64,000 nucleotides of DNA, taken from positions 4,597-68,596 of the forward strand of contig JAKLDD010000002.1 of assembly GCA_022703705.1 (NCBI GenBank), written 5' to 3'. This DNA is from Nanobdellota archaeon (lineage in GTDB: Archaea > Nanobdellota > Nanobdellia > Pacearchaeales > GW2011-AR1). Every line of letters starts with the position of its first letter. Positions within the stretch are counted from its first letter, which is position 1. The translations under genes and the position numbers were made by a program. This document shows, in pieces, positions 12,854-62,302 of this stretch. The notes below the pieces were generated by a model that did not search any database, was not told the DNA's origin, and was given only the letters and a program-made list of their open reading frames with translations.

Positions 12854-13279
12854 TTAAAAATTATTTTTCTTTTCTAGTTTATCTAATTTATCTTGAACAT
12901 GATTAAAAAGAGTTGTTGAAATAATTGGGGGGTGTTTTCCTTCAGAAATTTGCCCATCAAACCTAACTTTACCAACATAAACAAAATTTCTTAAAATTTT
13001 TTTTAATCCATTAACTGAAAAATTATGCTTTTCTGCAATTTTAGACAAGTTCATTTCTGGATTCAAAAACTCTTCAAAAATTTCTTCTACTTCTCTGTAG
13101 TTTTGCGCTAAAATCAATGTTTTTTCTTTAAAATCCCATTCATATCCGAAAGGGGATCTCGACATATGTTTTCCTTCAGAAAATTTTTTTAGCATTCCCT
13201 TTTTTTGAGATTTTCCTCGATCTTCCAATTCAGGTTTTAATTCTATTTCAAATTCGTGTCCACATTTAGGGCATTTCAT
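12854..13279 (-). CDS. Zn-ribbon plus serine-recombinase 'Recombinase' (DNA-binding) domain protein, lacking the catalytic resolvase domain
   Basis: N-terminal CPKCGHEF. SPFGYEW..LILAQNYREVEEIFEEFLNPEMNLSKIAEKHNFSVNGLKKILRNFVYVGKV matches the PFGY..EA..V..IF..SL..IA..LN...I..IL.N..Y.G pattern of PF07508. ATGA overlap with the xerA stop. Confidence 0.65.
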   Translation of the reverse strand: MKCPKCGHEFEIELKPELEDRGKSQKKGMLKKFSEGKHMSRSPFGYEWDFKEKTLILAQNYREVEEIFEEFLNPEMNLSKIAEKHNFSVNGLKKILRNFVYVGKVRFDGQISEGKHPPIISTTLFNHVQDKLDKLEKKNNF

Positions 13280-14109
13280 TTCATTAATTCATCTATAGGG
13301 GATTTTATCTTCTTTAATTCTTCTGTTGATATATGAGTATAAATTTGTGTTGTTGAAAGATCTGCATGCCCAAGCAATTCTTGTATTTTTCTTATATCCG
13401 TCCCGTTTTCTAAAAGATGGGTGGCAAAACTATGCCTCAAAGTATGGCAATGAATTTCCTTGTTTATTCCTGCTCTTTTTGCTGCTTTTGAAACAATTTT
13501 TTGCAAATTTCTCTCTGAAAGTTTTCCTTTTATTCCAGTAAATAAATATATTTCTTTTTTTTCTTTCTGCTTTTCTACTTGTTTTTTTAAATCTTCTAAT
13601 AAAAAATCTGGAATGTTAAAAATTCTATCTTTTTTTCCTTTTCCTTGAAGAATTTTTCCTGTTTTTTCATTAAAGTCCAAGTCCCCAATTTTTAAATTGA
13701 TTAATTCGGATACCCTAAACCCACAGGCATACATTAAAGAAACCATAATTTTTGATTTTTTCGTGTCCAATACTTCAAATAATTTTTTTGCTTCTTCTTT
13801 TGTTAAAACCGTGGGCAATCTCTTTTCTCTTTTTGGACGTTTAATTCCCAGGGTAATGTCTTTTTTTAATATACCTAAAAAAGAATATTTTAAAGCTGAA
13901 AGAAAAATAATTATGGATGAGGAAGCTTTATCAGAAAGATTCTCTGAAATATATAATTTTACATCATCTGATTCTATTTTCTCTGGATTTTTTTTTATAA
14001 ATTCAAGAAATTTTTTATTTGAATCCAAATAATTTCTCAGTGTATATAATGAATTTTTTGAAATTTTCAGTTCAACCTCTAATTTTTTTAAAAAATCTTC
14101 TGGAGTCAT
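13276..14109 (-). CDS. xerA: tyrosine recombinase XerA/XerC/XerD family
   Basis: 277 aa. ACGFRVSEL (Arg I), HTLRHSFATHLL (H-x-x-R), LGHADLSTTQIYTH (catalytic Tyr), N-terminal SAM-like core-binding domain. Confidence 0.9.
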   Translation of the reverse strand: MTPEDFLKKLEVELKISKNSLYTLRNYLDSNKKFLEFIKKNPEKIESDDVKLYISENLSDKASSSIIIFLSALKYSFLGILKKDITLGIKRPKREKRLPTVLTKEEAKKLFEVLDTKKSKIMVSLMYACGFRVSELINLKIGDLDFNEKTGKILQGKGKKDRIFNIPDFLLEDLKKQVEKQKEKKEIYLFTGIKGKLSERNLQKIVSKAAKRAGINKEIHCHTLRHSFATHLLENGTDIRKIQELLGHADLSTTQIYTHISTEELKKIKSPIDELMK

Positions 14110-14124
14110 TTTTATCTTAAAAGA

Positions 14125-14135
14125 ATTGTACGAAC
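14125..14135 (-). promoter_or_regulatory. Xer half-site (GTTCGTACAAT) between the xerA TATA-like box and start codon
   Basis: The 11-mer is identical to 17685-17695 and nearly identical to both arms of the dif-like site. A TATA-like tatttaaa (minus strand, 14139-14146) lies upstream, and the ATG is at 14109. Confidence 0.55.
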
Positions 14136-14156
14136 TTCTTTAAATAGTTTTAGACT

Positions 14157-14303
14157 CTATTTTTTAAGGAGTTCTTTTTGATTAATCAAAACCAAAATAA
14201 CTGCTCCAATTAAAAAAAGCCAATTAACTAAGATAGCTAAAACAATAAACCCTATTGCAAGTAAAGAAAACCAAAATACTTTGGGATATTTTAGAAATTT
14301 CAT
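14157..14303 (-). CDS. small membrane protein (48 aa), below the ORF-track cutoff
   Basis: Hand translation: MKFLKYPKVFWFSLLAIGFIVLAILVNWLFLIGAVILVLINQKELLKK*. Confidence 0.35.
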   Translation of the reverse strand: MKFLKYPKVFWFSLLAIGFIVLAILVNWLFLIGAVILVLINQKELLKK

Positions 14304-14383
14304 AGGGAGGAGAGTTCATAGAGATATTTAAACTATCTTCTTGGAACAATAATTTTTAAAAAATAGAAAAAATTGGGATTAAA

Positions 14384-14911
14384 ATGAGAGACTCAAATAA
14401 AAAAATTCTTGTAATTGCTTTAGCTTTACTCTTTATAGCAATTGTTTTAATTTTACTCATTTCAAGTTTAGTCAAACAAAAAGAGAAAGAGGAGAGAGTT
14501 GGGGTGCCAACATCTTTTGCTGTTTCAGAAAATCAAGATTATTCTAGCCACATTCAAGGAAAGAATTATTACTATTATGATTATAATCATCGGCATGAGA
14601 TAAATTATTATAACCTTGATCAACAAAAAACTGAAAAAAGAACTGATTTTTCTTATTATGGGAGAAAAGAACAACAAAAAGACATTTTTGGGAGTTATAT
14701 TACTAAGTATGTTGTTTCTGTCCAAAACAAGGAAAATGTTGGAGATTATTTTACAGTTACATTTAATTTTAAAAATCAAAGGGGATTTGAATATTCTGAA
14801 GCAGTAACTCAGTATTTAAAAGCAGGAGAGAAAAAAGAATTTGTTTATAAAGATGTTCAATTTGAAAGGACAGAAATCTTAAGCTGGAGCTATAGAGTTA
14901 AACAGGTATAA
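14384..14911 (+). CDS. N-terminally anchored extracellular protein (175 aa)
   Basis: Signal-anchor ILVIALALLFIAIVLILLISSL, a Tyr/Asn-rich segment, and a beta-rich C-terminus. Confidence 0.6.
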   Translation: MRDSNKKILVIALALLFIAIVLILLISSLVKQKEKEERVGVPTSFAVSENQDYSSHIQGKNYYYYDYNHRHEINYYNLDQQKTEKRTDFSYYGRKEQQKDIFGSYITKYVVSVQNKENVGDYFTVTFNFKNQRGFEYSEAVTQYLKAGEKKEFVYKDVQFERTEILSWSYRVKQV

Positions 14912-14927
14912 ATAAGCTATTTTTAGT

Positions 14928-14955
14928 GGTTCGTATAATGTATATTGTACGAAGC
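14928..14955. other. dif: dif-like Xer recombination site GGTTCGTATAA-TGTATA-TTGTACGAAGC
   Basis: 11-6-11 architecture with near-palindromic arms. It shares 20/28 identity with E. coli dif (GGTGCGCATAATGTATATTATGTTAAAT, from memory), including the identical TGTATA spacer and 17 of the first 19 nt. Located 0.8 kb from xerA. Confidence 0.75.
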
Positions 14956-14965
14956 TTTACCTATT

Positions 14966-15460
14966 TTAGAAGGATTTTGGAGGTTTTGATAGTATTTCCT
15001 TAGTAATCTTAACAATTTGTTTTAATATTTTCGGATTTGTGGCCTTTTTTAAAAACTGTTCATCTTCTGTTGAAAATTGTCTTGCACTTAGGTTAGCTTT
15101 GTTATTTTTTGTTTGATATTCTTTGAAAGCCGGTGAATCTTTATGAACTAAAAGATACTCAAAAACATCCCCGAGGTTTTTCTGGTAGTCTTTAAACTGT
15201 TCTTCACTAATAAGAGCATATTCATGAAATTCATTTAAAGAGAGATTTCCATGTCTTTTTAAAAGAGGGAACCATACAGAAAGTTTCCCATCTTCTACAT
15301 AGTGAATTCCTAATGAATTTTCTTCAGGAATCTGAAATAATAAATGTGGGGCCATCATGTTTTGAAAATACTTTCCCTTGAAATTTTCAATTAATAAATC
15401 ATAAAGAGTGTGCTCATACGGGATTAGTTTTGGTTCTAAACCTTTTTTCATTTTATTCAT
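14966..15460 (-). CDS. hypothetical protein (164 aa)
   Basis: ORF with no recognised motif. Repeat R1 lies ~100 nt upstream. Confidence 0.55.
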   Translation of the reverse strand: MNKMKKGLEPKLIPYEHTLYDLLIENFKGKYFQNMMAPHLLFQIPEENSLGIHYVEDGKLSVWFPLLKRHGNLSLNEFHEYALISEEQFKDYQKNLGDVFEYLLVHKDSPAFKEYQTKNNKANLSARQFSTEDEQFLKKATNPKILKQIVKITKEILSKPPKSF

Positions 15461-15559
15461 AAGAAAAGATTCCTTTTAACTATTTATATTAAGCAAGATA
15501 TATTTTTTAAAATTTTTACTCTTACACTTTTTACACCTGCAAAAATCTTTTAACTAAGT

Positions 15560-15594
15560 TTCACCTGCCTTTTTGCACTTAGGTTAGGTAAGTT
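15560..15594. repeat. repeat R1 copy a (ttcacctgcc-ttttgcacttaggttaggtaagtt)
   Basis: The 24-nt core is identical to 16074-16097. It lies ~100 nt upstream of the start of gene 14966..15460. Confidence 0.8.
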
Positions 15595-15638
15595 CACTTA
15601 ATTAAATTTATTAAAATAATTTTAAAATTATTTAAAAC

Positions 15639-15959
15639 TTAATAAAAAGGACATCTAATCCCATTTAATTTATGAAGATGCTCTTCTGGAGTATTAACAA
15701 ATCCCCTTTTAAAAAAAGGGGCATAAGGTAGTCCTCTGCTGGAAGTATTTTCAAGGGTGAGGGTTGAACCAAAATAGTACCATTTCTTTTCCAAATCTTT
15801 CTTACTCTTTCCGAATCTTCTAAATTTAATATGATATAGTTCATCAAATTCATTACCTAGTTCTCCGGATGGATTATATATGGCAAGCTCATTTGCATTA
15901 AATAATGGCTTAGGTTTTGATCTATTTTTGGGCATTAAAATTTTAGTAAGCTTAATCAT
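15639..15959 (-). CDS. hypothetical protein (106 aa)
   Basis: ORF with no recognised motif. Repeat R1 lies ~105 nt upstream. Confidence 0.5.
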   Translation of the reverse strand: MIKLTKILMPKNRSKPKPLFNANELAIYNPSGELGNEFDELYHIKFRRFGKSKKDLEKKWYYFGSTLTLENTSSRGLPYAPFFKRGFVNTPEEHLHKLNGIRCPFY

Positions 15960-16063
15960 TCTTCTTAAAGCAATTAATTATTTTTAAAAATTTGGATTAA
16001 GAAGGGTATATGAAGTTTATTTTTTACAACAAATTTTTCAGTAAAATTTTCTTGCTATTTATT

Positions 16064-16097
16064 TTCACCAGCATTTTGCACTTAGGTTAGGTAAGTT
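16064..16097. repeat. repeat R1 copy b
   Basis: ttcaccagca-ttttgcacttaggttaggtaagtt, at the same offset from the start of gene 15639..15959. Confidence 0.8.
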
Positions 16098-16122
16098 ATT
16101 TGTAATTAGTTTAATTTTAATG

Positions 16123-16150
16123 CGTTGGATGTGTTGGATGTGTTGGAATG
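16123..16150. repeat. repeat R2: three tandem 9-mers (gttggatgt gttggatgt gttggaatg)
   Basis: The 20-mer tgtgttggatgtgttggaat (16130-16149) recurs exactly at 17800-17819, inside a CDS. Confidence 0.8.
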
Positions 16151-16179
16151 CCAGTTAAAAATGTATAATTTACCTGTTT

Positions 16180-16311
16180 AAACAGCTGTTTGTTATATTT
16201 TATCGACGGAATAATAAAAATTAAAAAAACAAAAATTAATTAAAATTTAAGGTGTTTAAATGGCTGTTTAAATTTTAAACAGCTGTTTGCCACTGTTTAA
16301 ACAGGCTGTTT
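16180..16311. repeat. iteron cluster: 12-bp palindrome AAACAGCTGTTT (2 perfect + 2 degenerate copies)
   Basis: Perfect copies at 16180-16191 and 16277-16288. Variants aaatggctgttt at 16258-16269 and aaacaggctgttt at 16299-16311. Confidence 0.8.
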
Positions 16312-16470
16312 GTAGTTATTTTTTTACTATAAACATGGTTTTTTAACAATTTTTTAGCTTATTTTTTATTTATTTTTGTACCCTTTTTTTGTTTTTAAAT
16401 CAAAGAAAAATTTCGTTTTTCCCGATGAAAAAAACAAAACATTTTTAAACCGGTTTTTCTAATAGATATT

Positions 16471-17103
16471 ATGTTTAGATGGTTTTCTAAAAAAAAGGAT
16501 AAAAAAGAGCTTGAAGATATAAAAGAAGAAACAAAAAAAGGTTTTGATTTTGTAAAAAAAGATATTGCAACAGTAAGTGGATGGATTAAACACCTAGATT
16601 CTGAAAAAAAAATACAAGAAAAAGATATATTATCCATTAAAGAAGATTTGACGACGGTTAAAGAAGAATTAGAAGGATTAAAAAATGTTTTATCTATTAT
16701 GAATGATCTTAAACCCAAACAGCTGTTTAAAACAAACAAACAGCTGTTTAATAAACAAACAGCTGTTTATGCTGTCCAAACAGGTGTCCAAACAGGTGTC
16801 CAAACACCAAATTTAGGACAATTTTCTGTAACAGAAAGAGCGATTCTATGGGTGTTATTAAACACAGATATGAAACTAGGTTATGATGATCTTTCTACTA
16901 TGCTAGGAAAAGAAAAGAGCACAATAAGAGGTCAAATAAACTCCATAAAAGCAAAAAGTGAGGGTATAATAGAGGAAATTATTGAGACAAATGGCAAAAA
17001 AAGAGTGTTTATACCTGAAGAAATTAAAGAAAAACTACTAAAAAAGTCAAAAGTAAGGGTTGGACAGTCAAAAAACACCAAAAAAGTCAAAAGTGAGGAT
17101 TAG
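16471..17103 (+). CDS. coiled-coil / low-complexity linker / C-terminal wHTH DNA-binding protein (210 aa)
   Basis: N-terminal KKGFDFVKKDI..coiled coil, linker KQLFKTNKQLFNKQTAVYAVQTGVQTGVQT, and wHTH SVTERAILWVLLNTDMKLGYDDLSTMLGKEKSTIRGQINSIK. Paralog of 17328..18032. Confidence 0.65.
   Translation: MFRWFSKKKDKKELEDIKEETKKGFDFVKKDIATVSGWIKHLDSEKKIQEKDILSIKEDLTTVKEELEGLKNVLSIMNDLKPKQLFKTNKQLFNKQTAVYAVQTGVQTGVQTPNLGQFSVTERAILWVLLNTDMKLGYDDLSTMLGKEKSTIRGQINSIKAKSEGIIEEIIETNGKKRVFIPEEIKEKLLKKSKVRVGQSKNTKKVKSED
16717..16806. repeat. three more perfect AAACAGCTGTTT palindromes plus AAACAGGTGTCC x2, inside the CDS
   Basis: Perfect copies at 16717-16728, 16738-16749 and 16757-16768; ccaaacaggtgt x2 at 16776-16800. 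Confidence 0.8.
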
Positions 17104-17166
17104 TAACCCTTAAAATATTAAAAAAATAAGAAAAAATTAGATAAAAAAGTCAAAAGTGAGAGTTAA
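17041..17166. repeat. three copies of aaaaagtcaaaagt[ag]ag[ga]g spanning the CDS 3' end and downstream
   Basis: Copies start at 17041, 17081 and 17144. The second contains the stop codon, and the third repeats the C-terminal coding module after the stop. Confidence 0.7.
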
Positions 17167-17210
17167 TAGATTCAAAAAATAAGAAAATAAAAAGAAAAAA
17201 TCGGGGGGAA

Positions 17211-17246
17211 AGAAAAAAGGGAGATAAAAGAAAAAAGGGAGATAAA
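17211..17246. repeat. 18-bp tandem duplication (gaaaaaagggagataaaa x2) in a ~220-bp almost pure-purine tract
   Basis: Read directly. The tract 17104-17327 is A/G on the plus strand and T/C on the minus strand. Confidence 0.75.
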
Positions 17247-17327
17247 AGAAAAAAATAAAGAGAAAAAAACACATAAGAAACCCAAAAGGGAGGGAAAAAA
17301 GTTATTCGGTAAGCAAGATAACTATAA

Positions 17328-18032
17328 TTAAAGCTCCCTTAACTGTAAAATTGTGCTTAAAGAAGCAATTTTCTTAAAGTTTGATGAAATAATCAATTGA
17401 ATATTTTTATTATTGATTTTAATTTTCTCGACGGGAATTCCTTTTTTAATTAACCTTCCAACATAATCCCTAATAGAGCTTTCAGTTAATTTTAGCTTTT
17501 GAGATAAATTCCTATAATCTGCATATCCTTCTTCTTCACAAGATTGATACAGTGCAGAAAAAACAGTCATTTCTTGATCTGTAAGTCGTTTAAATTTTAA
17601 ACGTATCTCTTTTTTTAGATTATCGAGAGAATCTAAAATTTTTACAGCATCTATTATGGGGCTTTCTTTTTCTTTATTATTGGTATTGTACGAACCTTTA
17701 TCTGTCTGTTGGTTTGTCTGTTGGTTTGTCTGTTTGTCTGTTGGAACCCCTACATTTCCAGTGGAAATACCTAAATTTTCATCCCTAAGGAGCCCAAAAT
17801 GTGTTGGATGTGTTGGAATTTGTGGTGAGGATGTTGAATTTTCTGATTTATGTGTTGGATCTTCTTTAAAATTTTCTTCTTTCTGCTTTATTGAAATTTT
17901 CTTTATTAATTCACATAATTCAATTAAACTTTGCCTATTTTCTTTTAATCCTTCTTTTAAAGAATCAACCTCTTTTCTCAAAATATCCATATCTTGTTTT
18001 ACCTTTGAAAATGCCTCTTTTATTTGTTCCAT
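17328..18032 (-). CDS. coiled-coil / low-complexity linker / C-terminal wHTH DNA-binding protein (234 aa), paralog of 16471..17103
   Basis: IKEAFSKVKQDMDILRKEVDSLKEGLKEN aligns with KKGFDFVKKDI..VKEELEGLKN. wHTH LTDQEMTVFSALYQSCEEEGYADYRNLSQKLKLTESSIRDYVGRLIKKG. The linker carries PTHPTH and TDKQTNQQTNQQTD repeats. Confidence 0.65.
   Translation of the reverse strand: MEQIKEAFSKVKQDMDILRKEVDSLKEGLKENRQSLIELCELIKKISIKQKEENFKEDPTHKSENSTSSPQIPTHPTHFGLLRDENLGISTGNVGVPTDKQTNQQTNQQTDKGSYNTNNKEKESPIIDAVKILDSLDNLKKEIRLKFKRLTDQEMTVFSALYQSCEEEGYADYRNLSQKLKLTESSIRDYVGRLIKKGIPVEKIKINNKNIQLIISSNFKKIASLSTILQLREL
17685..17695 (-). other. isolated Xer half-site GTTCGTACAAT inside the CDS linker
   Basis: 11-mer identical to 14125-14135, in the same orientation as the right arm of the dif-like site. 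The flanking would-be left arm is degenerate (5/11). Confidence 0.5.
17704..17744. repeat. tandem gtctgttggttt repeats (minus strand AAACCAACAGAC), related to the AAACAG half-iteron
   Basis: Two 12-mers plus two shorter units, encoding the QTNQQTNQQTD linker. Confidence 0.7.
17800..17819. repeat. repeat R2 second locus (exact 20-mer)
   Basis: tgtgttggatgtgttggaat is identical to 16130-16149 and encodes PTHPTH on the minus strand. Confidence 0.8.
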
Positions 18033-18096
18033 CTTTTTTTAAATAATATCTCCTATAAAAAGATTGAGATATTTTAAAATAATATTTGAGAAATAT

Positions 18097-18372
18097 TCAG
18101 TTTAAGCTTTGCCTGTTTTTGTACACCTTATAAACTTCATCTGAAAGCCTCCATCGACTTCTTTTAAGGTAGTCTACTCCCTTGGAATTCTTTTTTATTT
18201 CAACAACCAACTTTTCCTTTTTTAGTATTAATAATAAATTTTTTATAAATTCTTCATCTCGAGCGATTTCTTTTGCAATATTTGATGTAAAAACCGATTT
18301 TGGGTTAACAGAATAGAGGTAAGCAAGAATTTGTTCAGAGATTTTCTCTTTTTTTTCTTTTGAAATAAACAT
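18097..18372 (-). CDS. small winged-helix DNA-binding protein (91 aa)
   Basis: ISEQILAYLYSVNPKSVFTSNIAKEIARDEEFIKNLLLILKKEKLVVE has a wHTH pattern. Confidence 0.6.
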   Translation of the reverse strand: MFISKEKKEKISEQILAYLYSVNPKSVFTSNIAKEIARDEEFIKNLLLILKKEKLVVEIKKNSKGVDYLKRSRWRLSDEVYKVYKNRQSLN

Positions 18373-18502
18373 AATTAGATTAAGAAGAAAGTTCTTTTAA
18401 AGTTAATTATCTATTATGTTTTAAAATTACTTCTTAAATTCTAAAAATTATTTGTTTAGTTTTAAAAAAATGTAATTTAAAAAAGCTTCTTTAGGTACTT
18501 CT

Positions 18503-18916
18503 TTAATTTTTTTCTTGAGATTTTATAGAAGGAAGGGGGATATGCAATGGAAGATTAAATTCTTCTTCAAAAGGAATTGCTTTTAGACTTGCCTTTTTTA
18601 AGATTATGTTGAAAATATTTAATTTAAATTCTTCCGGCATTTTTTTATCTTGCCATTGTCTTAAAACTTCTTTAGCTTCTTTAGATTCTACTGAAACAAG
18701 CATATTTCCAGTAAAGTCTAATTTAGCTATTTTTTCCTCATAAGAAATATTGTAATTGAATTTAACTGCAATTAAATCTCCATTTAACTTTAAAAAATCA
18801 GATTTTACTGTTTTTATATCAGAAATATCTACTCCTGTATTAATTTTTAAGTCTTTTAGATTATCTGAAAGCTTTTCTACATTTATTTTTGTAAAATTGA
18901 AACTAACTAACTTCAT
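18503..18916 (-). CDS. hypothetical protein (137 aa)
   Basis: Clean ORF with no confident motif. Confidence 0.55.
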   Translation of the reverse strand: MKLVSFNFTKINVEKLSDNLKDLKINTGVDISDIKTVKSDFLKLNGDLIAVKFNYNISYEEKIAKLDFTGNMLVSVESKEAKEVLRQWQDKKMPEEFKLNIFNIILKKASLKAIPFEEEFNLPLHIPLPSIKSQEKN

Positions 18917-18969
18917 ATTATGATATTAAATTTTATATTTTTAAATATTTAGGTTAAAAAATAATACTT

Positions 18970-19230
18970 TTAAATTAAATCTTCTTCAGAAACAATAACA
19001 AAATCACCTATAGCAATAATTGAACTATACGGTACCAAAAATTCTCCAGAAGAGGTTTTTTCAAGATTTAAATTTCTAGAATAAGGTGTGGGATCTTTTA
19101 AAACAACTCCAATTAACTCTCCGGATTTTGTTTCAAAAGTAATATCTTTAACATAACCTAATCTTTTTCCTTCTTTTGTTACTACCATTTTTCCAATAAT
19201 AACATTAAAGGGAGTCTTTTCTATTTGCAT
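18970..19230 (-). CDS. PRC-barrel domain protein (86 aa)
   Basis: Start at the internal Met MQIEKTPFNVIIGKMVVTKEGKRLGYVKDITFETKSGELIGVVL..IIAIGDFVIVSEEDL. The track N-terminal extension runs into the origin AT tract. Confidence 0.65.
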   Translation of the reverse strand: MQIEKTPFNVIIGKMVVTKEGKRLGYVKDITFETKSGELIGVVLKDPTPYSRNLNLEKTSSGEFLVPYSSIIAIGDFVIVSEEDLI

Positions 19231-19316
19231 ATTGAAAATAAAAGTAATCAATTTATAAACTTTTCTGTAAAAATATATAGAGATTTGAATGTATAAAACA
19301 ATCAAAATTTAAATCC

Positions 19317-19341
19317 CACACCCTTTTGTTTCTTATGGAAA
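19317..19341 (-). promoter_or_regulatory. ORB-like box 1 (inverted): TTCCATAAGAAACAAAAGGGTGTG
   Basis: Dyad TTCCAnnnGAAAC plus a G/T-rich tail, comparable to archaeal ORB/mini-ORB elements (TTCCAGTGGAAAC type). Confidence 0.6.
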
Positions 19342-19394
19342 TATTTATAAATCAAAATGAAAAATTTTATTTTATTTATTTATTTATAAAAATT

Positions 19395-19426
19395 TATATT
19401 ATATATTATATATTATATATTATATT
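19395..19426. repeat. (TATATTA)n heptamer repeat, ~4.5 copies
   Basis: tt doublets recur every 7 nt at 19399, 19406, 19413 and 19420. Confidence 0.8.
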
Positions 19427-19437
19427 TTACTATTTTT

Positions 19438-19461
19438 AATAATAATAATAATAATAATAAT
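19438..19461. repeat. (AAT)8 microsatellite
   Basis: Read directly from the sequence. Confidence 0.9.
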
Positions 19462-19667
19462 AAAAGAATTAAAAGAATCAAAAACACTATAAAAGTAATA
19501 TAACAATAACATAACAAGAAGACATAATTAATAACATTCTATCAAAAACATAAAAATTATAATAATTATAATAAAAGAAATAATTAAAATTTTGGTAATA
19601 AATTAAAAATAACAGCTAAAATCTCAAAAACTTAAAAATAGCACTTAAAATTCAAAAAAACTAATCA

Positions 19668-19690
19668 TTCCATTAGAAACGTAGGTGTTT
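19668..19690 (+). promoter_or_regulatory. ORB-like box 2: TTCCATTAGAAACGTAGGTGTTT
   Basis: Same dyad and G/T tail, in the opposite orientation to box 1 across the AT-rich region. Confidence 0.6.
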
Positions 19691-19764
19691 CTCTTAATTA
19701 GTGGTTATAATTCTTTATATAAGAAATACATTTTTTTCATCGATAATTTAATTAATTTTAAATT

Positions 19765-19788
19765 TTCCACAGGAAATAAACGTGTGAG
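19765..19788 (+). promoter_or_regulatory. ORB-like box 3: TTCCACAGGAAATAAACGTGTGAG
   Basis: Same dyad, 30 nt upstream of the cdc6 ATG. GAGGT SD-like element at 19806-19810. Confidence 0.55.
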
Positions 19789-19817
19789 ATAATGAAATTA
19801 AAACGCGAGGTTAAAAG

Positions 19818-21029
19818 ATGAAAATAGATATTGAAAAAATTTTTGATACTTTTGATAAAAATGGAATTTTTAAAAACAAATCTTTATTACAATCAAATTA
19901 TACTCCAAATGAAATTCCCCATAGAGAAGAAGAAATAAAGCAGATTGCTTCTATCTTGGCTCCAGTATTGAGGGGAGAAAAAACAAGTAATTTATTTCTT
20001 TACGGGAAAACAGGAACAGGAAAAACCCTTTCTGTCCAATTTGTTCAAGAAGAATTAAATAAGCGAGTAAAAAAAGATTCAAATTTTAAATTAAAAATAG
20101 AATATTTAAATTGTAAATTAAAAAAGGTGTCTGATACAGAATATAGAATTTTAGCAGAATTAATTAAAAAAATGGGGGGGGAAGTTCCTCAAACAGGGCT
20201 TCCAACTCAAGCAGTATATAACAAATTTATAGAAACAATTGATTCTGAAAGGCAAGTAATAGTACTTATTTTAGATGAAATTGATCAAACAGTAAGGAAA
20301 ATTTCAAGCGATTTTTTGTATAATTTAATAAGATTAAATTCAGAACTTTCAAAATCCAAGCTTTGTATAGTTGGAATTAGCAATAATTTAACCTTTTTAG
20401 ATGAAATAGACCCCCGAGTAAGAAGTTCCCTTTCAGAAGAGGAAATTGTTTTTCACCCGTATGATGCTCTTCAATTGCAGGATATCTTAAATAAAAGGGC
20501 AAGAATGGCATTTAAAGAGGGAGTTATTCAGGAAGGGGTTGTTTCTAAATGTGCCGCATTTGCTGCAAGAGAGCACGGAGATGCAAGAAGAGCCCTAGAT
20601 TTACTTAGAATAGCTGGAGAGTTAGCAGAAAGAGACAATTCAGGTAAAATTTTAATAAAACATATAGATGAAGCAAATAATAAAATAGAAAAAGATAAGA
20701 TTTTAGATGTAATTCAATCAGAACCCAAACAATTTCAGTTAGTTTTAAAGGCAATTATTTATTTATCTGAAACTCAAAAAAACGAACCCATTTTTACAGG
20801 AGATGTTTATAATGTATATCAGGATTTTTGTTTAAGGCATAAACTAGAAGTATTAACCCAAAGGAGAGTGGGGGATATAATTCAAGAGTTTGATATGCAT
20901 GGAATAATTAATATAAAAGTTATTTCTAAGGGCCGGGGAGGGAGAATGAGAGAAATTAAATTAGCAATTCCAAAAGAGATTACAAAAAAAGCAAATGAAA
21001 TTGTTGAACACTCCTTAAATTATTTATAA
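19818..21029 (+). CDS. cdc6: Orc1/Cdc6 replication initiator
   Basis: IPHREEEIKQI.., Walker A YGKTGTGKT, Walker B LILDEID, sensor GISNN, GDARRALDLLR, and a C-terminal winged helix. Confidence 0.93.
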   Translation: MKIDIEKIFDTFDKNGIFKNKSLLQSNYTPNEIPHREEEIKQIASILAPVLRGEKTSNLFLYGKTGTGKTLSVQFVQEELNKRVKKDSNFKLKIEYLNCKLKKVSDTEYRILAELIKKMGGEVPQTGLPTQAVYNKFIETIDSERQVIVLILDEIDQTVRKISSDFLYNLIRLNSELSKSKLCIVGISNNLTFLDEIDPRVRSSLSEEEIVFHPYDALQLQDILNKRARMAFKEGVIQEGVVSKCAAFAAREHGDARRALDLLRIAGELAERDNSGKILIKHIDEANNKIEKDKILDVIQSEPKQFQLVLKAIIYLSETQKNEPIFTGDVYNVYQDFCLRHKLEVLTQRRVGDIIQEFDMHGIINIKVISKGRGGRMREIKLAIPKEITKKANEIVEHSLNYL

Positions 21030-62209: not shown

Positions 62210-62302
62210 AGCCCCATAGTACAGTGGTCAAGTATACGGCCCTTTGGTGTTATTAAGTAATGGAGAAAGGCCGGGACCTCGGTTCGAATCCGAGTGGGGC
62301 TA
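62210..62302 (+). tRNA. tRNA-Gln (anticodon TTG at 62244-62246) with a 20-nt intron at the canonical 37/38 position (62248-62267)
   Basis: Hand-folded: acceptor AGCCCCA/TGGGGCT (A1-U72, typical of archaeal tRNA-Gln), D-arm GTAC AGTGGTCAA GTAT, anticodon stem CGGCC/GGCCG interrupted by tgttattaagtaatggagaa, T-arm CTCGG TTCGAAT CCGAG. Confidence 0.85.

Follow-up and report, generated by a model that had tools for sequence, protein, structure and literature searches.

Palindromic site arrays and a variable cassette array at a conserved origin-proximal locus of Pacearchaeota

Several described systems bear comparison with the region treated here, positions 15560-16470 of a 64-kb stretch of archaeal DNA (64,000 nt, hereafter the window), in which three families of short repeats lie upstream of the gene for a winged helix-turn-helix (wHTH) protein of 210 aa, wHTH210. 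In Bacillus subtilis, parS lies inside spo0J/parB, and on plasmids parC/ParR repeat clusters flank the par promoter. Iteron origins consist of direct repeats, each 17-22 bp long and regularly spaced in tandem, beside an AT-rich element where the duplex unwinds. Integron attC sites, 57-141 nt in length, are imperfect inverted repeats with a hairpin fold, and IntI has an extra domain. Integrons with cassette arrays have also been reported from archaea (Ghaly et al. 2022, PMC9668308). A dif site would be expected once per chromosome as the target of XerA; in its structure, a 6-nt spacer lies between two inverted arms of 11 nt each (PMC2958812, PMC8371274). A literature search on the palindrome and on origins of DPANN archaea found no description of the locus; a 2026 Nanobdellota preprint lists a conserved wHTH marker and does not describe the locus.

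With a probability of roughly 55%, 15560-16470 is a conserved chromosomal control region that combines operator arrays with a cassette array of undescribed exchange mechanism, as part of a DPANN-specific, origin-proximal gene cluster. The three repeat families are an asymmetric element (R1), a tandem 9-mer (R2) and a 12-bp palindrome. An earlier note on this DNA had proposed a protein-binding or operator-type control region beside genes of DNA-binding proteins, which the conserved clustering of the palindromes supports; a plasmid or viral nature and replication iterons had been suggested as well. Beyond that note, the palindrome and R2 were found to continue inside wHTH coding sequences, R1 appears as the junction of a variable cassette array, and a third R1 copy was detected. 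The most unusual finding, solid at the level of sequence statistics, is the presence of putative binding-site arrays within the coding sequence of a disordered linker.

A conserved architecture upstream of wHTH210

The window is assigned to a Pacearchaeota (DPANN) chromosome, since the 210-aa protein encoded at 16471-17103 has an identical counterpart that was named from a Candidatus Pacearchaeota metagenome-assembled genome; the same contig has been recovered in several metagenomes. GC content is about 29% throughout, and the repeat region shows no shift in composition relative to its surroundings. The flanking genes encode the ribosomal proteins L13 and S9, an archaeal XerA with a 141-aa Recombinase-domain protein, wHTH210 and a 234-aa wHTH protein (wHTH234), followed beyond wHTH234 by a 91-aa wHTH protein (wHTH91), a 137-aa protein (p137), a PRC-barrel protein, and then Orc1/Cdc6 and PolD. 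The order ribosomal proteins, XerA, wHTH210, wHTH234, wHTH91, p137, PRC, oriC, Orc1, PolD is conserved in about 80 species-level genomes. Related loci were taken from 80 GTDB species-level genomes and from metagenomes (65 loci), giving about 145 in total, and the same architecture is found upstream of wHTH210 across them, with fixed neighbour genes. Within the GTDB set, wHTH234 is found convergent and downstream in 80/80 loci and wHTH91, p137 and PRC in 73-75 each, while Orc1 is reached in 59. The two orphan genes of the window are rare (4 and 1 of the 80 loci).

The palindrome AAACAGCTGTTT occurs five times exactly in the 64 kb (0.4 expected), and all five copies lie within 600 bp: two in the intergenic region (16180 and 16277) and three inside the wHTH210 coding sequence (16717, 16738 and 16757). 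With the variants AAATGGCTGTTT at 16258 and AAACAGGCTGTTT at 16299, the intergenic copies make up the four that had been described for 16180-16311. Tail-to-tail dyads CTGTTTAAACAG are located at 16174 and 16293. AAACAG/CTGTTT half-sites number 88 in the window, 17 of them in 16174-16795. Across the related loci, the consensus palindrome is AAACA-SS-TGTT(T). The pattern AAACA(SS or SSS)TGTT was counted 326 times at -400..-100 and 413 times at +200..+400 relative to wHTH210; the remainder of the 6 kb on each side is practically free of it. Nearly all loci carry 6-7 half-sites in the 600 bp upstream of wHTH210, with a peak at -300 to -125; this density of about 11 per kb compares with about 1 per kb in the rest of each locus. 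Variants that are not palindromic are found upstream in either orientation. The spacings of the upstream dyads peak at 22-23, 30-32, 42, 52-58 and 62-64 bp; as these values are near multiples of 10.5 bp, they suggest binding on one face of the DNA helix. The earlier note had named a dispersed repeat family, or a lack of conservation, as a refutation of a local function; in the window and the related loci, the repeats proved conserved and confined to this place.

The order of blocks is fixed in an alignment of 11 loci. R1 comes first, then the R2 zone, palindrome 1 and a TTTTATCGACGG box; a variable, A-rich stretch leads to the palindrome cluster, which has CTGTTTAAACAG(G/C)CTGTTT at its end, and after this come a T-run accompanied by a lone half-site, a second CGAYG box and CAAAACATTTTTAAAC. 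In the window, palindrome 1 (16173-16192) reads CCTGTTTAAACAGCTGTTTG and contains three alternating half-sites. It is followed on the plus strand by the distal TTTTATCGACGG box (16198-16209), a fourth conserved motif with near-invariant alignment columns and an A-rich, TATA-like sequence next to it. The cluster of palindromes 2 to 4 (16251-16311) consists of GGTGTTTAAATGGCTGTTT, AAACAGCTGTTT and CTGTTTAAACAGGCTGTTT. The conserved T7 run and the lone half-site behind it (16319-16339, plus strand) read TATAAACATGG in the window and GACAAACAG in the consensus of the relatives; the T-rich stretch described earlier up to the ATG at 16471 is present. The proximal CGATG box and the BRE/TATA-like (B recognition element and TATA box) CAAAACATTTTTAAAC form an invariant alignment block at 16416-16450 (plus strand), a putative promoter. 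Since the ATG lies only 21 nt past CAAAACATTTTTAAAC, the wHTH210 mRNA would be leaderless. Block position, order and phasing are kept across genomes whose proteins share only 65% identity, and the three repeat families thus belong to a single architecture that is conserved on the chromosome.

The fourth motif, TTTTATCG(A/T)CGG, is found at 16198-16209 and at 16416-16432, the latter just upstream of the BRE/TATA-like element. In related loci it also occurs in the convergent intergenic region (+700..+1000), and in about 100 of the 145 it is present inside the wHTH210 coding sequence at about +165, a position not occupied in the window.

The canonical replication origin lies elsewhere, at 19306-19817, with the Orc1 gene starting at 19818. 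Elements resembling origin recognition boxes (ORBs) are located at 19329 (minus strand), 19668 (plus) and 19765 (plus); these elements, TTTCCATAAGAAA (inverted), TTCCATTAGAAAC and TTCCACAGGAAAT, flank a duplex unwinding element (DUE) of about 300 bp with more than 85% AT. The repeat region is separated from oriC by 3.3 kb and five conserved genes, in agreement with the 3-4 kb given earlier. The search across the window found no ORB and no exact TTCCANNGGAAA in 15560-16470, and the repeat region was rejected as a chromosomal origin because a complete ORB/DUE origin sits separately at 19306-19817.

A replicon derived from a plasmid or virus, or a second origin, with the repeats as iterons and the wHTH proteins as initiator or partition proteins, would account for the repeat density, the T-rich stretch and the adjacent DNA-binding genes. 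It would also fit the variable orphan genes, the HNH-like gene in some arrays, a tyrosine recombinase gene 2 kb away and a mini-ORB in the upstream field of a few species. This explanation is very improbable and largely refuted by synteny, as about 145 chromosomal loci have inherited architecture and gene order vertically and the base composition is like that of the surroundings. On the repeat pattern expected of iterons the picture is mixed: the palindromes are inverted half-sites rather than direct iterons, while their dyads are spaced near multiples of 10.5 bp and a T-rich tract comes next. No Rep or initiator gene is adjacent, and gene-family scans (Pfam, NCBIfam) of wHTH210, wHTH234 and the orphan genes found no Rep, Orc or primase domain. 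The recombinase scores as chromosomal XerA, below the integron-integrase cutoff. R1 gave eight hits in viral contigs, about the number expected by chance, and the one inspected lies in a tail-fibre gene on a contig of 39% GC. The suggestions of a plasmid or viral region and of origin iterons are accordingly not supported.

Motif arrays inside the wHTH coding sequences

The wHTH210 gene (16471-17103, plus strand) belongs to a DPANN-specific family in which a disordered linker connects a long helix at the N-terminus to a winged helix at the C-terminus. Of 2400 relatives in the database, the top 120 share ≥70% identity with the protein, and the family is narrow (182 clusters at 50% identity among 1.84 billion representatives). 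The AlphaFold model predicts a helix at residues 3-80, a disordered segment at 85-112 (predicted local distance difference test, pLDDT, <50) and a confident winged helix at 120-190. Foldseek matched the C-terminal domain to MepR (3eco, E = 9.6e-4) and AbfR2 (6cmv, E = 1.6e-3); weak Sta1/Lrs14 profile matches were also found. As there is just weak local similarity between wHTH210 and wHTH234, the two were rejected as close paralogues.

The intragenic array (16715-16806) is encoded within the linker and comprises three copies of AAACAGCTGTTT, two of CAAACAGGTGTC and one CAAACAC. The corresponding peptide, KPKQLFKTNKQ.FNKQT.VYAVQTGVQTGVQTP, is almost invariant, yet it coincides with the predicted disordered residues 85-112. 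The first site is read in different frames in different relatives: AAA CAG CTG TTT encodes K-Q-L-F (K-Q-x-F, 12-mer) in 37 coding sequences, and ACA AAC AGG CTG TTT encodes T-N-R-L-F (T-N-x-x-F, 13-mer) in 20. Within the QTxV repeats, CAA accounts for 96% of Gln codons (66% elsewhere) and ACA for 95% of Thr codons (62% elsewhere); Val is written GTT or GTC, and GTA, which makes up 24% elsewhere, is absent. Residue x is Gly, Ala or Pro, always encoded by GGT, GCT or CCT, which supply the SS centre of the motif. CTG accounts for 23.5% of Leu codons in the linker vs 5% in the rest of the same genes. Because synonymous codons are fixed and the motif is kept in two reading frames, these codon statistics show selection on the nucleotide motif, with the peptide following. 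The palindromes as a by-product of a conserved peptide were rejected on the same grounds, and the paradox of an invariant yet disordered linker is resolved if conservation acts on the DNA.

A further motif, AAAGT(G/A)AG(G/A)(G/A)TT, is found three times on the plus strand at 17045-17165, two copies at the end of the coding sequence in different frames and one downstream. The related loci hold 170 copies at +400..+700, all on the plus strand. In the window this 3' motif, AAAGTGAG(A/G)GTT, sits within a 220-nt tract that is almost pure purine on the plus strand (17045-17327). Downstream of a homologue of 23% identity in an unrelated context, it occurs five to six times about 93 nt apart (L215 4590-5110; L217 638-722).

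R2 (16124-16150, plus strand) had been described as three tandem 9-mers. Two exact copies of GTTGGATGT are indeed located at 16124 and 16133, while the third unit, GTTGGAATG at 16142-16150, matches at only 7/9 positions. The 9-mer alone is not significant in the window. The 21-mer ATGTGTTGGATGTGTTGGAAT (16129-16149) recurs exactly at 17799-17819, inside the gene of wHTH234 (17328-18032, minus strand), which encodes a coiled coil and a wHTH domain. The copies in this gene (17799-17862) are on the plus strand and thus antisense to it; the coding strand reads PTHPTH and a third PTH. Similarly, across the loci the R2 family, ATGTG(T/C)(T/C)G(G/A), is found on the plus strand only, at -500..-300 in about one third of loci and at +1100..+1500, antisense within wHTH234, in most. 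There it encodes [PS][TA]H repeats, with copies often 42 nt apart, and codon use is again strongly biased: Ser is TCG in 91% (8% elsewhere), Pro CCA in 96%, Thr ACA in 99% and His CAT in 96%.

The wHTH234 coding sequence also carries a perfect mini-ORB, ATTTCCAGTGGAAAT (17753-17767), which encodes ISTGN and is followed on the coding strand by GTAGGGGT. Among 102 unique wHTH234 sequences, 93 contain the mini-ORB TTTCCA(C/T)(A/T)GGAAAT as (I/F)S(T/I)GN, with fixed TCC, GGA and AAT codons. Exact TTCCANNGGAAA is found in the window only at 17755 and, within oriC, at 19765. This suggests an Orc1 site embedded in the wHTH234 gene, 1.6 kb from the DUE. From the placement of the motifs it follows that both wHTH genes host DNA motifs in their low-complexity middles, and that the field upstream of wHTH210 carries copies of them.

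Candidate readers of the sites

The right half of the region (16120-16470) would be a field of binding sites, with the palindromes as operators of a dimeric coiled-coil/winged-helix wHTH210. The second array of the same sites lies at +230..+330, in the DNA encoding the protein's own disordered linker. Two palindrome clusters would then bracket the leaderless promoter, and their position on both sides of it would allow cooperative autoregulation of loop or roadblock type. MarR/Lrs14-like winged helices bind palindromes as dimers, which would fit the modelled C-terminal domain. If the long helix dimerises and carries two winged helices on flexible tethers, dyads of both 12 and 13 bp would be tolerated, and head-to-head as well as tail-to-tail pairs of half-sites could be accommodated. 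R2 may be the equivalent motif for wHTH234, whose linker-coding DNA holds R2 copies and an ORB-like site.

The pairing of protein and palindrome draws on two comparisons. The upstream variants (CAGCTG, CAGGTG, CAGGCTG, CAGGGTG and others) tend to equal the variant in the coding sequence of the same locus: upstream and coding arrays share on average 4.24 12-mers within a locus vs 2.97 between loci (0/5000 permutations, in a test that ignores phylogeny). In addition, the palindrome changes together with the helix that reads the DNA. Where the recognition helix is ST.RGQIN, the arrays are of the QT.V/AAACAG type; distant members with VT.RRHI.D have FMNV-type linkers and, at the same position of the coding sequence, CGTTC/GAACG palindromes in three independent contigs, for example TGTTCGAACGTTCATGAACGTTCGAACA. 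The candidate site of the RRHI-helix homologue would be CGTTCATGAACG, versus AAACAGCTGTTT for wHTH210. As the embedded palindrome differs along with the recognition helix, this covariation is the best available support for self-recognition, of modest strength. The arrays of the distant subfamily are located at L215 4233-4353, L217 354-480 and L218 378-439, and include four copies of GTTCATGAAC and a perfect palindrome of 28 bp; L215 is not near Orc1.

Several observations weigh against these assignments. The covariation may reflect a single deep split, and gene conversion could lie behind part of the match between upstream and coding variants. The palindromes could be the sites of another protein (wHTH234, wHTH91 or Orc1). 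The upstream array does not cover the promoter but sits 135-300 nt away from it, which is unusual for simple repression, and the half-site centres are only about 6 bp apart, so that a tethered pair of winged helices is needed. In the distant subfamily, palindromes are present within the coding sequence alone, and the gap of 120 nt upstream contains none, so not all members of the family have an upstream array. Upstream R2 is present in only about one third of the loci.

The exact identities of 21 nt and of 12-17 nt between intergenic and coding copies, and locus-specific variant sharing compatible with conversion, could also mean that the intergenic repeats have no local function and are relics of slippage or gene conversion from repetitive linker-coding DNA. 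This is the least probable of the explanations considered and hardly credible, since block position, order and phasing are conserved at just 65% protein identity and the synonymous-site constraint in the coding sequences indicates selection on the nucleotide motif itself.

A function at the RNA level is more credible than a relic but improbable. The upstream field, from the distal CGACGG/TATA-like box to the T7 run, would be a small RNA or long leader, in which R2 pairs with wHTH234 mRNA over 21 nt without mismatch and the palindromes pair with wHTH210 mRNA for antisense-type control; alternatively, the intragenic motifs would be mRNA structures. R1, R2 and the 3' motif are strictly strand-specific, and upstream R2 and the R2 of wHTH234 are always on the same plus strand, antisense to wHTH234 mRNA, although such constancy can come with conserved synteny. 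The R2 match is locus-specific (1.26 vs 0.59 shared 12-mers, 0/5000 permutations; reverse-complement control not significant), the T-run after the palindrome cluster is conserved, and a second promoter-proximal-like box is present upstream. However, loopless perfect 12-bp palindromes are poor RNA hairpins and typical double-stranded DNA dyads, and the distal promoter is not clearly conserved beyond close relatives. Neither did a search of Rfam 15 give a family match: only two tRNAs reached the gathering score in the window, and nothing meaningful was found at E ≤ 10 in 14900-16500. In the 11-locus alignment the upstream sites lie upstream of the TATA box, and together with the variants in both orientations this favours double-stranded DNA over RNA as the form in which the sites are read.

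The motif clusters, which over about 2 kb comprise the upstream field, the linker DNA of wHTH210, that of wHTH234 with its ORB, and the 3' repeats, might instead form a nucleoprotein complex beside oriC, a centromere-like or origin-organising hub for segregation or origin regulation, with the coiled-coil wHTH proteins as site-binding adaptors and gene regulation as a secondary role. The position next to oriC and Orc1 is fixed in all loci that extend far enough, and the arrays are dense and phased. DNA-level selection on the sites inside coding sequences would also fit, as would the perfect mini-ORB, which within the window is otherwise found just in oriC, the PRC-barrel gene in the cluster and the long coiled-coil helices predicted for the proteins. 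Such a hub nevertheless appears rather unlikely. No ParA, SegA or other nucleoside triphosphatase (NTPase) family was found among the five conserved cluster genes or the flanking open reading frames (ORFs) of 12854-19305, the wHTH fold matches ordinary transcription regulators, and distant members in unrelated contexts, not near Orc1, still have intragenic palindromes, so that embedding is independent of the origin. A more far-reaching combination can be put forward tentatively, as possible rather than probable: DPANN archaea would write the site arrays of origin-proximal proteins into the linker-coding sequences of these same proteins, a true dual coding in which the linker peptide would mostly be a side effect of constraints on the DNA motifs; these arrays, the upstream field and the intragenic ORB would make up an origin-adjacent centromere-like hub, with an undescribed exchange of R1 cassettes, using neither attC nor dif, beside it.

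The interval between the wHTH234 gene and oriC (18097-19305) encodes the 91-aa wHTH protein, the 137-aa protein, which has no family match, and the PRC-barrel protein. Taken together, the genes of the origin-proximal cluster may have a link to the cell cycle.

The R1 cassette array and comparison with described systems

The 24-nt core of R1, TTTTGCACTTAGGTTAGGTAAGTT, occurs exactly at 15571-15594 and 16074-16097 (0 expected), within two extended plus-strand units, R1a (15560-15594, TTCACCTGCCTTTTTGCACTTAGGTTAGGTAAGTT) and R1b (16064-16097). Their similar offset of about 100 nt upstream of both orphan genes was measured as 111 and 115 nt from the minus-strand ATGs at 15460 and 15959. R1b is the terminal copy, and an orthologous copy is found upstream of wHTH210 in nearly all relatives. 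The third copy, R1c (15080-15103, plus strand, TCTTGCACTTAGGTTAGCTTTGTT), is 83% identical and of the internal type; it lies in the 3' part of the 164-aa ORF p164, where the minus strand reads N-K-A-N-L-S-A. The p164 gene (14966-15460, minus strand) encodes a rare, lineage-restricted protein and belongs to a module bounded by R1c and R1a; the protein has 35 homologues among 5.8 billion clusters and no Pfam match, and the homologues are conserved up to NKANLSA, encoded by R1 on the minus strand, and unrelated beyond. The orphan gene p106 (15639-15959, minus strand) has three homologues in the whole database. The two genes are not tandem paralogues: no BLASTP similarity was found between them, and R1 and part of the upstream region alone are shared.

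In the 80 GTDB loci, R1 was found in 157 copies, all within 1.7 kb upstream of wHTH210. At ≤1 mismatch, the core CACTTAGGTTA is present in 1-5 copies per locus, almost always on the plus strand and 300-600 bp apart. The consensus tTTGTGCACTTAGGTTAgCTTaGTTA spans about 26 nt, and the flanks are not conserved. A metagenome scan gave 120 hits, of which 65 have wHTH210 downstream on the same strand, and 14 have no such gene nearby, most of them without the conserved left flank; in the remaining 41 the contig ends within 1.2 kb, mostly with XerA, p175 or S9 synteny. As nearly all hits are at the locus, R1 is considered specific to it, and a dispersed genome-wide repeat was rejected (three copies in 64 kb). 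The 41 contigs that end ≤1.2 kb downstream of R1 indicate that assemblies tend to break here, which fits strain-level heterogeneity of cassettes.

The modules between R1 copies occur in varied orders and combinations, with 29 clusters and 119 singletons in the 145 loci. Their products are small proteins, for the most part uncharacterised, among which zinc ribbons, an HNH-like protein and a membrane protein similar to DUF5654 can be recognised. The closest relative of the window (L007, 96% protein identity) lacks p106, and the two R1 copies collapse to one there; the difference amounts to one extra R1 and the p106 module, with homology breaking at the R1 edges. Two near-identical strains, L016 and L182, agree at 99.9% of positions to the right of R1 and at 97.5% in the block on its left, yet one whole cassette differs, and the right breakpoint falls exactly at GCACTTAGG. 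The 3' part of R1 varies with the right-hand neighbour. A conserved peptide motif was rejected as the basis of R1, as it lies in an ORF for 22% of internal and 2 of 117 terminal copies.

From this shuffling, it is concluded that R1 is the junction element of a cassette array. The left half (15080-16097) would be a rapidly changing short array of small orphan genes transcribed away from wHTH210, and R1 the place of module exchange, which may double as a shared upstream site of the cassette genes. Some points count against a dedicated exchange site. Sharp breaks at the R1 edges are expected from plain homologous as well as from site-specific recombination. R1 lacks the dyad symmetry of a tyrosine-recombinase core site, and dif or attC was rejected because symmetry is no better than in shuffled sequences (11-6-11 dyad, 259 instances, mean 5.90/11 matches vs 5.94 shuffled). 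The usual distance of 70-125 nt from a minus-strand ATG fits a purely regulatory role equally well.

The nearby recombinase (277 aa) scores 241.9 bits as archaeal XerA (cutoff 220) and 221.9 bits as integron integrase (cutoff 265). Its gene and that of the 141-aa protein (12854-14109, minus strand) overlap by 4 nt and are apparently co-transcribed. The 141-aa protein has a zinc ribbon and a serine-recombinase 'Recombinase' domain and lacks the catalytic domain; it could be an accessory factor of XerA. The pair is found upstream of the array in many relatives, the small protein in 46 of 80 loci. Directly behind the p175 gene, where the array has its left margin, a stretch containing GTAT(A)TTGTACGAA (14934-14962) recurs at 79% identity in the wHTH234 coding sequence (17675-17703), and the TTGTACGAA core is also located at the left breakpoint of the L016/L182 cassette swap, near -1110. 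It was not used as a further shared motif, since its localisation across loci is too weak. Elsewhere in the window, 62210-62302 is a 93-nt tRNA with an odd 4-base anticodon according to ARAGORN and 53 bits as Rfam tRNA, probably an intron-containing archaeal tRNA.

For DPANN archaea there is no genetic system, and almost nothing is known of their replication, segregation and gene control; the locus provides motifs and candidate binders close to oriC. As a natural example of overlapping codes for protein and putative DNA sites, the intragenic arrays are unusually clean: a disordered peptide that looks invariant appears to be conserved for its DNA. This matters for the interpretation of conserved linkers and for the annotation of hypothetical proteins in reduced genomes. 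The R1 array is a compact hotspot of gene turnover that may explain assembly breaks and could reveal a new exchange mechanism, or at least serve as a strain-typing marker.

Compared with archaeal origins, the locus shares the proximity of 3.3 kb, the mini-ORB in the neighbouring wHTH234 gene and a T-rich tract. It differs in that the region itself contains no ORB, that AAACASSTGTTT, R1 and R2 are unrelated to ORB, and that no initiator gene is adjacent.

Integron and dif modules resemble the cassette array in their short modules with one small, often orphan gene each, in the conserved site of one orientation between them, in shuffling, gain and loss among close relatives, in ORFs that sometimes enter the site and in a tyrosine recombinase nearby. 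In contrast, R1 is a 26-nt asymmetric element with neither an attC hairpin nor an 11-6-11 dif dyad. The recombinase is XerA-like without the IntI signature and is not adjacent in many genomes; the array, with its 1-5 sites, is short and bound to one place on the chromosome, and its genes seem to have their own promoters.

As in parS and parC systems, palindromic or repeated sites lie near the origin, partly in the protein's own gene or bracketing its promoter, and one set of sites can serve both autoregulation and complex assembly. Unlike in par systems, the cluster contains no ParA/ParM/TubZ-type NTPase, the protein has neither the ParB nor the ribbon-helix-helix fold, and the chromosome is archaeal (DPANN).

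Autoregulated MarR/Lrs14-type regulators share with wHTH210 the winged-helix fold and palindromic sites clustered beside their own gene. The dimerising element of wHTH210, in contrast, is predicted to be a helix formed by about 80 N-terminal residues, which a disordered tether of about 35 residues connects to the wHTH domain. Where MarR/Lrs14 proteins have one or two operators, this locus has 8-10 half-sites well upstream of the TATA box, and a second array lies inside the wHTH210 coding sequence, kept there by synonymous-site and frame-independent selection.

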